A DNA stretch of 33,766 bases from Escherichia phage PCM001: the sequence record OR529306; one strand, given 5' to 3'. The stretch's first letter is position 1; each line of letters begins with the position of its first letter. The notes below the pieces were generated by a model. The model did not search any database. It was not told the origin of the DNA and saw only the letters and a program-made list of their open reading frames with translations. Positions 28,403 to 33,766 of the stretch are shown here, in pieces. The translations under genes were made by a program, and so were the position numbers.

Positions 28403-28627
28403 TTAACTCCTTTGTTGTTTAATTACAGGTGTATTTATAATGAATTTCTTCGGGACAATAAAATATCCGAATTTAGCTAATATAACAACATCACCGTTAA
28501 TTATTACCGGAGAATAATCATCTGGAGTATTAAATTTCCAGTGGAGTCTAGTATTATATCCATCAGAGCCGAATGCTTTATTAGCCGGTCTCCCGGCTTT
28601 TTGCCATGCATAAAAATCAAGTTTCAT
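28403..28627 (-). CDS. Hypothetical protein (74 aa)
   Basis: track ORF 28403..28741 (TTG start) trimmed to ATG at 28627 (MKLDFYAWQ). Confidence 0.4.
   Translation of the reverse strand: MKLDFYAWQKAGRPANKAFGSDGYNTRLHWKFNTPDDYSPVIINGDVVILAKFGYFIVPKKFIINTPVIKQQRS
28432..28439 (-). promoter_or_regulatory. T4-type late promoter motif TATAAATA upstream of soc
   Basis: exact TATAAATA on - strand about 32 nt upstream of soc ATG, inside the 3' end of the preceding ORF. Confidence 0.55.
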
Positions 28628-28790
28628 TTGCAACCCAATCAACCATATGTAGATGGTCTGATAATTGACTAACATGCTGAAGCTGATTAGACAAGAGCTT
28701 ACAAATAAGCTCACTGTTATCATTTTTAAATAGCTGGTCAATATGTTTCTTGTGGGCTTTCTTAAGCTGTCGTTTATTTAAACGAGCCAT
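28617..28790 (-). CDS. Micro-ORF, basic protein (57 aa)
   Basis: MARLNKRQLKKAHKKHIDQLFKNDN; TAATG overlap with gp56 stop; not in ORF track; alternative to the N-terminal extension of track ORF 28403..28741. Confidence 0.35.
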   Translation of the reverse strand: MARLNKRQLKKAHKKHIDQLFKNDNSELICKLLSNQLQHVSQLSDHLHMVDWVANET

Positions 28791-31341: not shown

Positions 31342-31992
31342 TTAACCTCGATTCATAAATGCATTAAATATTTGGTCGTCGACAGAAATTTCCAATTCGA
31401 CTTCAATTGCTTCAGCCTTTTCTTCAGGTGGTAATTCGTATCCACACACTACAATTTTTTCATCGATATCAAAATATACAGAAGCAATACGATTAATGTT
31501 ACTTTCAGTTAAGTCTAAATCAACATCAACATCTTTTTGACCTACACTTAAAGGATAACTAATACGGGTTATTTTATTATCTTTAACAAAGAGTCCACCA
31601 ACATACTCTGTACTACGTTTGAAGTTTACACGTTTCCGAATTGAAAGATATGATACATCTTTACCGTGAGCTCGGCTCATAGGACATAATGAATAACTAG
31701 AATAAGAGATGTCAAATCCTACACCTTCAATATGAGCCAACGTGTCATGAGTAAACCAATTATAATCATATGCCAAATCCATTATATTGTAATATGTGAA
31801 AGGCACAGGATTAACATCATATGTTGTACCTTTAAAATCTGCCCAGGCAACGATTTCGTTATCTTTAACAATTACAAAAATTACACCAATATGATATCCG
31901 TTATTATTTTCGTTCGGCGTTATATTATAACATTGTGCATTAGGAAATTTACCATATTTAAATGGCGCGTTTTTGTGCATATAATAAATCAT
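31342..31992 (-). CDS. Hypothetical protein (216 aa)
   Basis: track ORF 31342..32001 (GTG start) trimmed to ATG at 31992 located 1 nt after sp stop, SD AGGTGA. Confidence 0.5.
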   Translation of the reverse strand: MIYYMHKNAPFKYGKFPNAQCYNITPNENNNGYHIGVIFVIVKDNEIVAWADFKGTTYDVNPVPFTYYNIMDLAYDYNWFTHDTLAHIEGVGFDISYSSYSLCPMSRAHGKDVSYLSIRKRVNFKRSTEYVGGLFVKDNKITRISYPLSVGQKDVDVDLDLTESNINRIASVYFDIDEKIVVCGYELPPEEKAEAIEVELEISVDDQIFNAFMNRG

Positions 31993-31993
31993 A

Positions 31994-32287
31994 TTATTCA
32001 CCTGTGATTTCGGTTACGATATCTTTGTTATCGAAATTAGGGTCACAATACAAAACATAATTGTACTGCATGATACCGCCAGACTTAAGTTGTTCAACAA
32101 CTTTATTAACCATATTAGGACGGTCTCGTTTAGTGATGTTCATGATATCAGAGAAGATTTGTTGTTCAACATCTTCTTGATCTGCAGTCATTGACCACTC
32201 ACAGAGGTCTTTATCATAACCTGCCATAACTGGAGCTGGTGCACATGATACTGCAAATAAGATTGCTGCCAATGATAACTTTTTCAT
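31994..32287 (-). CDS. sp: Spackle (periplasmic superinfection-exclusion protein), 97 aa
   Basis: signal peptide MKKLSLAAILFAVSCAPAPVMA then GYDKDLCEWSMTADQ ... LKSGGIMQYNYVLYCD matching recalled T4 Sp; SD AAGGAG. Confidence 0.85.
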   Translation of the reverse strand: MKKLSLAAILFAVSCAPAPVMAGYDKDLCEWSMTADQEDVEQQIFSDIMNITKRDRPNMVNKVVEQLKSGGIMQYNYVLYCDPNFDNKDIVTEITGE

Positions 32288-32316
32288 TTTAACTCCTTAG
32301 TTGATTTGATAGGACT

Positions 32317-32346
32317 ACTATACTATAGTCCATCTATAATGTAAAC
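32317..32346 (-). promoter_or_regulatory. Early promoter upstream of sp
   Basis: - strand GTTTACA, 17 bp, TATAGT, flanked by inverted repeat GGACTA/TAGTCC. Confidence 0.5.
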
Positions 32347-32350
32347 AAGT

Positions 32351-32599
32351 TTATTCTTTTTCGCGAATAATAATTACTTGTTGAGGCTGCTGAGCAGATT
32401 TCTTTTCGGCAACGATAGACCAAATTAAAGTTCCAATCCAACCAACCATCGTCCAGTTAAAGAGTAAAGATACAAAGAAGATTGCTGTTGTGCTTTTTGT
32501 GCCACGAATAAGTGCGATTACCCAAGGCAACATGTAAATGATGATTGAACCAATACCTGCGATTAAAACTGCTACTGAACTAGCTACGAATAATTCCAT
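32351..32599 (-). CDS. Imm-like two-helix membrane protein (82 aa)
   Basis: LPWVIALIRGTKSTTAIFFVSLLFNWTMVGWIGTLIW resembles the superinfection-immunity (Imm) family pattern; SD AGAGGAA. Confidence 0.5.
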   Translation of the reverse strand: MELFVASSVAVLIAGIGSIIIYMLPWVIALIRGTKSTTAIFFVSLLFNWTMVGWIGTLIWSIVAEKKSAQQPQQVIIIREKE

Positions 32600-32660
32600 G
32601 TTAATTTCCTCTTGATTTGTTATGTTTATAATATCTTGTTTTAACTTTGGCGTAAACCAA

Positions 32661-33029
32661 TTAATTAAATTTGTTTAAACGTTCAATACACTGGACGTAG
32701 TTATTCGCGATTTGTTTCTGGGTAGGCTCTTTACCGGTTGTTTCAACATAGCGAATGAATGCGATTTCAGTAGCCTGTAGACAATGTTCTTTAACGCGTT
32801 GTTCTTTTGACATAGCTACAGTATCAGAATCACGATAACGTTGAGCATGGGCATCAGCTTGAATCATTCGATTACCTACAGTAACCGGGTCTTCCACTTC
32901 AACTTTAGGTTGGTCATACTGTTTAACATTCGGATTGTAAATCAGTTGGCCAACGTTATTAGGGATAAAGCCATGGGCACCACATCCGGTTAATCCAAAT
33001 ACCATTGCTAAAGCGATTAATTTTTTCAT
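32661..33029 (-). CDS. Predicted lipoprotein (122 aa)
   Basis: signal peptide with lipobox MKKLIALAMVFGLTGC; SD GAGGAA; own early promoter. Confidence 0.55.
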   Translation of the reverse strand: MKKLIALAMVFGLTGCGAHGFIPNNVGQLIYNPNVKQYDQPKVEVEDPVTVGNRMIQADAHAQRYRDSDTVAMSKEQRVKEHCLQATEIAFIRYVETTGKEPTQKQIANNYVQCIERLNKFN

Positions 33030-33057
33030 TTCAATTTCCTCTGTAGTTGATAGAAAG

Positions 33058-33087
33058 ATAGTAACACAGTATGCGATGCTTGTAAAC
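33058..33087 (-). promoter_or_regulatory. Early promoter upstream of lipoprotein gene
   Basis: - strand GTTTACA, 17 bp, TACTAT. Confidence 0.5.
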
Positions 33088-33089
33088 AG

Positions 33090-33302
33090 TTATTTTAAAC
33101 TTTTGCGAAATTTGCGTTTTTCTTGACGAATCTGTCGTTTAGTCGGACGTACAGCAAATTTAACGAAGTCCACTTTGCCGTGTGGAAACTTTTCAGATGC
33201 TTCACAGTCCATCATTAGTTCCCATCCTTCCAGAATAAGAGCTTTCCATTGTGTAGTTGATGCAAATTCGTATGTTGATGGTTTAAACACAGTTGAATAC
33301 AT
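33090..33302 (-). CDS. Hypothetical protein (70 aa)
   Basis: track ORF 33090..33347 trimmed to ATG at 33302 (MYSTVFKP) with SD AGAGGA, 1 nt after dmd-like stop. Confidence 0.45.
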   Translation of the reverse strand: MYSTVFKPSTYEFASTTQWKALILEGWELMMDCEASEKFPHGKVDFVKFAVRPTKRQIRQEKRKFRKSLK

Positions 33303-33303
33303 A

Positions 33304-33495
33304 TTATCCTCTGAAATCAGCTTCAAAAACTTTCTCGTCATTAACAAATGCTTTAACTAATGCTTTGTTCACTTCAGCAAGTTGTACCGTAACCCACTCG
33401 ATTTCTTCGCGATCACCTGATAACATGATATCTTTAGTGAACATCTCACCGCTTTTAAACCAACCAATAAAAGTAACTTTAGTTAATTTGCTCAT
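33304..33495 (-). CDS. dmd: Dmd-like antitoxin (63 aa)
   Basis: track ORF 33304..33516 trimmed to ATG at 33495 with SD GAGGA; about 60 aa, in the T4 dmd (61.5) position near sp; sequence identity recalled only loosely. Confidence 0.45.
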   Translation of the reverse strand: MSKLTKVTFIGWFKSGEMFTKDIMLSGDREEIEWVTVQLAEVNKALVKAFVNDEKVFEADFRG

Positions 33496-33766
33496 ATTTC
33501 CTCGCAAAATGCCCATTCAGCGTGATAAACTGTAGCACCTTTAGTATTATTCATTTGAACTACGTCTACCGGAGAAATTACTCGATAGAGACGTGGTTCA
33601 CCTCCATAAGAGCGTGCTGCTCGTCCTGCATAAATCTTTGCTAAACCGATATCTTCAGTAAAGAATACACGATCCAAGTTTTTCTTACGTCCAGTTTCAG
33701 ACAGAACTCCTGTTTCCTCAGGAGGACAAAGCATGTTTTCGATGTTAGCTGAACTACTTGAACCGT
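33492..33766 (-). CDS. 3' end of a gene continuing beyond the window (partial CDS)
   Basis: reading frame open from window edge to stop at 33492; stop overlaps dmd-like start (ATGA); T4 synteny would place gene 41 here but this C-terminus cannot be confirmed as helicase. Confidence 0.5.
   Translation of the reverse strand, partial: GSSSSANIENMLCPPEETGVLSETGRKKNLDRVFFTEDIGLAKIYAGRAARSYGGEPRLYRVISPVDVVQMNNTKGATVYHAEWAFCEEI

Follow-up and report, generated by a model that had tools for sequence, protein, structure and literature searches.

We analyzed a stretch of 33,766 nucleotides (nt) from Escherichia phage PCM001 (record OR529306; hereafter, the window) and focused on the minus strand of the region between positions 31994 and 33087, which carries three consecutive open reading frames (ORFs) for small envelope proteins of 97, 82 and 122 amino acids (aa). 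These genes are sp (gene 61.3; 31994..32287, minus strand), encoding Spackle; imm (32351..32599, minus strand), encoding the superinfection immunity membrane protein; and imm.1 (32661..33029, minus strand), encoding a predicted lipoprotein of the DUF5481/phrog_1754 family. The gaps measure 63 nt between sp and imm and 61 nt between imm and imm.1, and a further 60 nt extend up to the next gene. Sp and Imm are known from T4 as early proteins that block the entry of later T-even phages after adsorption (PMC7677548, PMC6832632).

From the profile matches and the alignments, we conclude that the 97-aa protein is Spackle, the ortholog of T4 Sp. It matched the PF25676 (T4_Spackle) profile over positions 1-96 of 96 (E = 1.5e-43, 147.7 bits against a cut-off of 27 bits) and phrog_1586 (4e-43), and it was 68% identical to T4 Sp in an ungapped alignment of all 97 residues. 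The signal peptide of 22 aa (MKKLSLAAILFAVSCAPAPVMA), followed by GYDKD, is part of this ungapped alignment, and its cleavage is predicted. The mature form of T4 Spackle comprises Gly23-Glu97 (75 residues) and is located in the periplasm, where it inhibits the gp5 tail lysozyme (PMC7677548). In the crystal structure of Spackle with the gp5 lysozyme, a disulfide joins Cys29 and Cys81, and gp5 is contacted by S32, M33, T34, A35, Q37 and N76 (PMC7677548). We observed that PCM001 Sp keeps both cysteines and the six contact residues at the T4 positions, so that it has the signal peptide, the disulfide cysteines and the gp5-contact residues in common with T4 Spackle.

The 82-aa protein reached 56.9 bits with PF14373 (Imm_superinfect; cut-off 27.9 bits) over profile positions 1-42 of 42, where T4 Imm scores 58.3 bits, and it matched phrog_1039 ("immunity to superinfection") with 1.2e-30. 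Over its entire length (82-83 residues), it had 64% identity with T4 Imm, and a tblastn search returned 1040 matching places in 1040 records, that is, a single copy of imm per genome. Given this end-to-end identity and the presence of exactly one copy per genome, the protein is the T4 Imm ortholog and the sole imm in the genome, not an Imm-like extra. Two hydrophobic segments were detected at approximately residues 1-34 and 40-59 (Kyte-Doolittle windows of 19 residues with values of at least 1.6), and inspection of the sequence revealed neither a lipobox nor a basic N-terminal region. T4 Imm has the two segments as well, and the C-terminal QVIIIREKE is conserved between the two proteins.

The profile and alignment results likewise indicate that the 122-aa protein is Imm.1, the ortholog of T4 Imm.1. 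It scored 37.4 bits with PF17578 (DUF5481; cut-off 27 bits), matched phrog_1754 over residues 1-120 (8.8e-29), and aligned with T4 Imm.1 at 32% identity (E = 1e-18), the lipobox (LTGC here, LAGC in T4) and two C-terminal cysteines being in register. The protein from T4 (ORF 42.2 of M37159), whose gene lies directly upstream of imm, belongs to the same family and shares the lipobox, the two conserved cysteines and the YNPN and YR.S motifs; it differs in having a G-VV-(A/Q)S-VGK segment after the lipobox cysteine and two extra cysteines, which are missing from the PCM001 protein. Essentially full-length matches to phrog_1754 were obtained for the four Imm.1 proteins tested, from PCM001 (Mosigvirus), T4 (Tequatrovirus), Gelderlandvirus and Jiaodavirus. 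When the Imm.1 family was compared with the Gelderlandvirus and Jiaodavirus lipoproteins using hhalign, only the signal peptide and the motif after the cysteine aligned; these distant lipoproteins are thus taken as Imm.1 homologs because of the full-length phrog_1754 matches and not because of hhalign.

The N-terminus of PCM001 Imm.1 (MKKLIALAMVFGLTGC) consists of MKK, LIALAMVFG and LTGC, with the cysteine at position 16 and Gly at +2. It fits the PROSITE-type lipobox pattern as well as a strict one, which demands a basic N-region, a hydrophobic region and [LVI][ASTVI][GAS]C within the first 15-35 residues. Besides imm.1, a single one of the 122 window ORFs of at least 50 aa passed the strict test, and that hit comes from a spurious extension at the N-terminus of a head-protein ORF (28403-28741). 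A separate observation concerns Sp, whose signal peptide (residues 1-15; 32243-32287, minus strand) also fits the permissive PROSITE lipobox (...LFAVSC15). The LASC15 of T4 Sp fits even the strict pattern; nonetheless, its accepted mature start is Gly23, generated by signal peptidase I (PMC7677548).

The AlphaFold2 model of Imm.1 had a mean predicted local distance difference test score (pLDDT) of 62.8. Residues 17-47 were modeled with low confidence and are probably flexible, and helices were placed at residues 48-67, 75-98 and 104-120; the last two, which bear Cys83 and Cys114, had a pLDDT of about 90. Structure and fold searches with Imm.1 gave no informative match and no structural analogue, and no similarity between Imm.1 and Spackle was found. 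The databases searched assign no function to the family, which is listed as DUF5481 and, in phrog_1754, as "unknown function"; NCBIfam and PADLOC had no match for Sp, Imm or Imm.1. Full-text literature searches found no paper on the function of Imm.1 or on the adjacency of sp and imm. The family is tiny, with three hits in a word-indexed search and nine when 1.84 billion representatives were searched exhaustively with a HMMER profile, and appears to be confined to phages.

Three further observations concern this family. A metagenomic homolog of 122 aa (P0002), 45% identical to PCM001 Imm.1, has LAGFSAHA in place of the lipobox cysteine; it is probably cleaved by signal peptidase I and soluble in the periplasm. 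A 198-aa protein from ENA (P0003) combines a family-A DNA polymerase domain (PF00476) with a segment that is 100% identical to the final 28 residues of Imm.1, and most likely is a chimera produced by assembly or gene calling. Finally, RefSeq labels Imm.1 of T4 (NP_049661.1) and of HX01 (NC_018855) as "iduronate sulfatase", a name that found no support in Pfam, PHROGs or the fold searches and that looks like a propagated annotation error.

The 2.5-kb region around the three genes was 99.2% identical in nucleotide sequence to that of Escherichia phage JN02 and 98.4% identical to that of RB69. Over at least 80% of this query, 154 phage records were collinear, the matches listed being all Mosigvirus, and Imm and Imm.1 were 97-100% identical across these approximately 154 records. 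The RB69 record (AY303349) is annotated in the order 61.2 - sp - imm - imm.1 - 61.4 - dmd, and later records carry the labels "spackle periplasmic protein", "immunity to superinfection membrane protein" and "immunity protein". The RB69 locus (AAP75937-AAP75939) and those of other Mosigvirus have the same genes, order, spacing and strand as PCM001, from which they differ only by point differences. The gene identities and their order have therefore been public since the RB69 GenBank record of 2003, and the locus itself is already known.

The arrangement of these genes differs from that of T4, where the order 43 - imm.1 - imm - 42 is found at one locus and 61.2 - sp - 61.4 - dmd at another, at a distance of about 6 kb. 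In Mosigvirus, the imm.1-imm pair is found between 61.4 and sp, with its order and orientation as in T4, so that sp and imm, about 6 kb apart in T4, are separated by only 63 nt in PCM001. We found imm just downstream of 43 in every other genus examined, namely in Gaprivervirus VR20, Dhakavirus Bp7, Gelderlandvirus and Jiaodavirus, and for this reason the Mosigvirus position is, on this comparison of gene orders, the derived one. Of the 80 Imm-encoding loci taken from IMG/VR, only two, both from Mosigvirus, had sp within 2.5 kb of imm on either side. In RB69, imm is absent from the interval between 43 and the homolog of the deoxycytidylate (dCMP) hydroxymethylase gene (42), which instead holds ORF055c to ORF049c; some of these genes were proposed to participate in the synthesis of uridine diphosphate (UDP)-arabinose for DNA with arabinosyl-hydroxymethylcytosine (PMC6024577). 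One of them, ORF054c, aligns with a small T4 ORF located between imm and 42, and its retention in the interval is, to judge from the alignment, a remnant that marks the old imm site. The arrival of the new 43-42 genes and the move of the imm.1-imm pair may have been linked events. As a side observation, the RB69 block between 43 and uvsX (24-31 kb) contains genes that T4 lacks, among them the GutQ-like ORF055c and ORF053c/052c, and the T4 homolog of ORF054c is a small hydrophobic ORF.

From these results, we propose that the locus is the RB69-type (Mosigvirus) arrangement of the T-even superinfection-exclusion genes, formed by the orthologs of T4 sp, imm and imm.1, a reading to which we assign a probability of about 0.85. 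A first-pass annotation of this DNA had recognized Spackle with its signal peptide, a protein resembling the Imm family and a lipoprotein with an LTGC lipobox, and had stated that in T4 imm lies elsewhere and no lipoprotein gene adjoins sp. The profile searches, the T4 alignments and the lipobox patterns agree with each of these statements, and the T4 gene order is as it was stated; the Imm-like protein proved to be the ortholog itself and the only Imm. The same annotation had also suggested an expanded exclusion or envelope-remodeling cluster, which did not hold, since T4 has the same three genes with imm.1 directly upstream of imm. Gene content is equal to that of T4, and the difference is one of position, not of expansion; the locus appears surprising because it was compared with the T4 gene order.

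A stronger form of that suggestion, in which sp had been joined by an additional paralog of the Imm type and by a new lipoprotein, is very improbable: PCM001, unlike T4, has the three envelope genes side by side, and the proximity of sp and imm is restricted to the two Mosigvirus loci mentioned above, but the paralog is refuted by the single copy of imm and by the orthology of both genes to T4 imm and imm.1, the ancestral site next to 43 lacks imm in RB69, and the arrangement recurs in about 154 genomes.

It had also been noted that each gene seemed to have an early promoter of its own, and a scan of the whole window for GTTTAC-N17-19-TANNNT bore this out. The motif was found at 14 sites, 13 of them on the minus (coding) strand, whereas dinucleotide-preserving shuffles gave an expectation of 1.64. 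Each of the three upstream gaps contained it once on the coding strand, in the form GTTTAC(A/G)-N17-TA(T/C)(A/T)(G/A)T. The site upstream of sp (32317..32346, minus strand) reads GTTTACA-N17-TATAGT; the one between imm.1 and imm (32628..32657, minus strand), GTTTACG-N17-TATTAT; and the one upstream of imm.1 (33058..33087, minus strand), which is TG-extended and whose first base is the end of the region at 33087, GTTTACA-N17-TACTAT. All three match or nearly match the early-promoter consensus TTTACW-N17-TAYWAT of the T4/PST group (PMC4122927). The distance from the end of the -10 element to the ATG was 30 nt for sp and 29 nt for both imm and imm.1, and a Shine-Dalgarno sequence, AAGGAG in the case of sp, was present in between for each gene. 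Thus, each gene is predicted to lie behind a T4-type early promoter. These promoters probably add to read-through transcription instead of defining isolated units, because a simple consensus scan of the three gaps revealed no terminator-like site between sp, imm and imm.1.

In T4, imm starts 11 nt after imm.1 and this gap has no promoter motif, whereas the corresponding PCM001 gap of 61 nt has its own; the same motif is present upstream of T4 imm.1. Since the five early-promoter gaps (three from PCM001 and two from T4) are 62-75% alike in pairwise comparisons, they do not distinguish which promoter traveled with the cassette. The RNA folds of the three PCM001 gaps were not significant (z = -1.76, -0.55 and +2.05). 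The locus was also compared with the mobile promoter-stem-loop (PeSL) cassettes of Arbiol et al. 2010, and this interpretation was discarded given that no terminator-like site and no significant gap fold were found. A 10-bp hairpin (GGACUAUAG...) at 32305-32330 (minus strand) overlaps the spacer and the -10 element of the sp promoter, and is not significant (z = -1.76).

To evaluate the linkage between imm and imm.1, all the ORFs of the 80 Imm-encoding IMG/VR loci were searched with a hidden Markov model (HMM) built from seven Imm.1 family members; 21 of these loci were T4-like contigs of 51-172 kb, and the other 59 were Imm-family loci that are not T4-like. Each of the 21 T4-like loci had a gene of the Imm.1 family directly beside imm and on its strand, upstream in 13 (gaps of 7-61 nt) and downstream in eight (gaps of 9-146 nt), the latter in phages similar to VR20 and Bp7. 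The same adjacency was observed in GenBank examples of Tequatrovirus, Gelderlandvirus, Jiaodavirus, Gaprivervirus and Dhakavirus. A strict lipobox was present in the 21 imm-adjacent proteins and none of them had Asp at +2, while the HMM search detected no Imm.1-family gene in the 59 loci that are not T4-like. Imm.1 is also the fastest-diverging gene of its neighborhood, about twice as far from T4 as its neighbors, with 32% identity against 57-75% for the six genes primase, 61.2, sp, imm, 61.4 and dmd. The pairing survives both the inversion of gene order and the change of position, which argues for functional coupling of imm and imm.1; taken together, the adjacency and the divergence of Imm.1 suggest a functional link between Imm.1 and Imm. 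Alternatively, the pairing may reflect shared descent within one subfamily; the association is lineage-specific, which agrees with a common function as well as with common descent.

By analogy with T4, the locus could operate as follows. Within minutes of infection, host RNA polymerase in its unmodified form would transcribe the three genes. Spackle would be exported, lose its 22-residue signal peptide and bind the gp5 lysozyme domain at the tip of the tail of a superinfecting T-even phage; this tail would then be unable to cut through the peptidoglycan. T4 Imm acts at the inner membrane, and the incoming DNA is kept from the cytoplasm (PMC7677548, PMC6832632); its PCM001 counterpart would insert into this membrane and halt the crossing of the incoming DNA, which would end in the periplasm. 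Because the relevant residues are conserved, Sp and Imm are expected to function here as they do in T4. For Imm.1, the sequence predicts lipidation at Cys16 and, by the +2 rule of E. coli, probable sorting to the inner leaflet of the outer membrane, as the residue at +2 is Gly and not Asp. The protein would consist of a flexible tether and a periplasmic helical domain, probably held by a disulfide between Cys83 and Cys114. Because its gene always adjoins imm in T4-like phages and shares its new position, Imm.1 is most likely an accessory of the entry block exerted by Imm.

Several considerations weigh against this proposal. Promoter activity, the lipidation of Imm.1, its outer-membrane sorting and its disulfide are predictions, and lipidation is not universal in the family, given the metagenomic homolog that lacks the lipobox cysteine. 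The fold searches with Imm.1, as mentioned, were uninformative. Plasmid-borne imm alone was reportedly sufficient to exclude T4 in the work of Lu and Henning in 1989; if so, Imm.1 is not strictly required. In addition, the downstream phenotypes of Sp and Imm in RB69 may differ from those in T4, as RB69 was reported to have no lysis inhibition (PMC6832632).

Among the alternatives, it is quite possible, although we do not favor it, that Imm.1 is unrelated to exclusion and is an independent early envelope protein involved, for example, in lysis timing, outer-membrane stability or host physiology, which adjoins imm only because small non-essential early genes share a promoter region downstream of 43. 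This would agree with the lack of an assigned function for DUF5481/phrog_1754 and of a structural analogue, with the said sufficiency of imm in T4, and with the promoter motif that PCM001 imm has of its own, by which co-expression is not needed. However, chance neighbors in a variable region are not expected to stay paired, and imm and imm.1 do so in 21 of 21 loci in spite of the flipped order and of the change of position in Mosigvirus.

Beyond the accessory role, we tentatively consider, with some doubt, that Imm.1 is a third component of exclusion, anchored in the outer membrane, fast-evolving and working with Imm at the inner membrane; for instance, it could bridge the periplasm at the site of injection or set which phages are excluded. 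If true, this would account both for the adjacency of imm and imm.1 throughout the sampled T4-like genomes and for their joint change of position in Mosigvirus, where three exclusion genes would have become one early-expressed block.

It seems unlikely that Imm.1 blocks a receptor or another outer-membrane component in the manner of T5 Llp or Cor, small lipoproteins of superinfection-blocking phages, masking the receptor from the periplasm so that later phages or the progeny released by lysis are not wasted on an infected cell. T5 Llp provides a precedent, and Imm.1 is likewise a small lipoprotein encoded by an early gene, lacks Asp at +2 and is predicted to reside in the outer membrane; its low identity to T4 Imm.1 relative to that of its neighbors is also what would be expected if it tracked a variable partner such as a receptor. 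In contrast, the receptor block exerted by Llp fits poorly with T-even exclusion, which does not prevent adsorption and takes effect after it; no sequence or fold similarity between Imm.1 and Llp or Cor was detectable, and the resemblance is a possible analogy only.

Returning to the proposal that Imm.1 assists Imm, its interest lies in the fact that the mechanism of Imm is poorly understood more than 30 years after the gene was cloned. As the constant neighbor of imm and a predicted outer-membrane lipoprotein, Imm.1 would be a specific candidate partner for exclusion; the residual interest of the locus resides in this candidate, and the sp-imm-imm.1 block by itself adds nothing new.

Regarding the surroundings of the locus, no tRNA was found between 30000 and 33766, and Rfam had no match in the whole window. 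Two called starts are too far upstream: the ORF of gene 61.4 (33090-33347, minus strand) matches its family only from residue 16, and in RB69 this gene is annotated as a 70-aa product, the ATG being at 33302; the head-protein ORF at 28403-28741 (minus strand) matches its 70-aa family only from residue 39. Early-promoter sites at 7974-8002/8293-8321 and 10860-10889/11369-11398 (minus strand) form two pairs of almost identical motifs, 319 and 509 nt apart, respectively; in each pair, a promoter cassette may have been duplicated on either side of small ORFs, in a variable region. Finally, two counter-defense genes flank the exclusion genes. Gene 61.2 (31342-32001, minus strand) matched the Pfam family AdfA, anti-DarT factor A, with 3.2e-118, and dmd (33304-33516, minus strand), the antitoxin-like "discriminator of mRNA degradation", matched PF17587 with 8.9e-22; in Mosigvirus, a stretch of about 2.2 kb holds both sets of genes.

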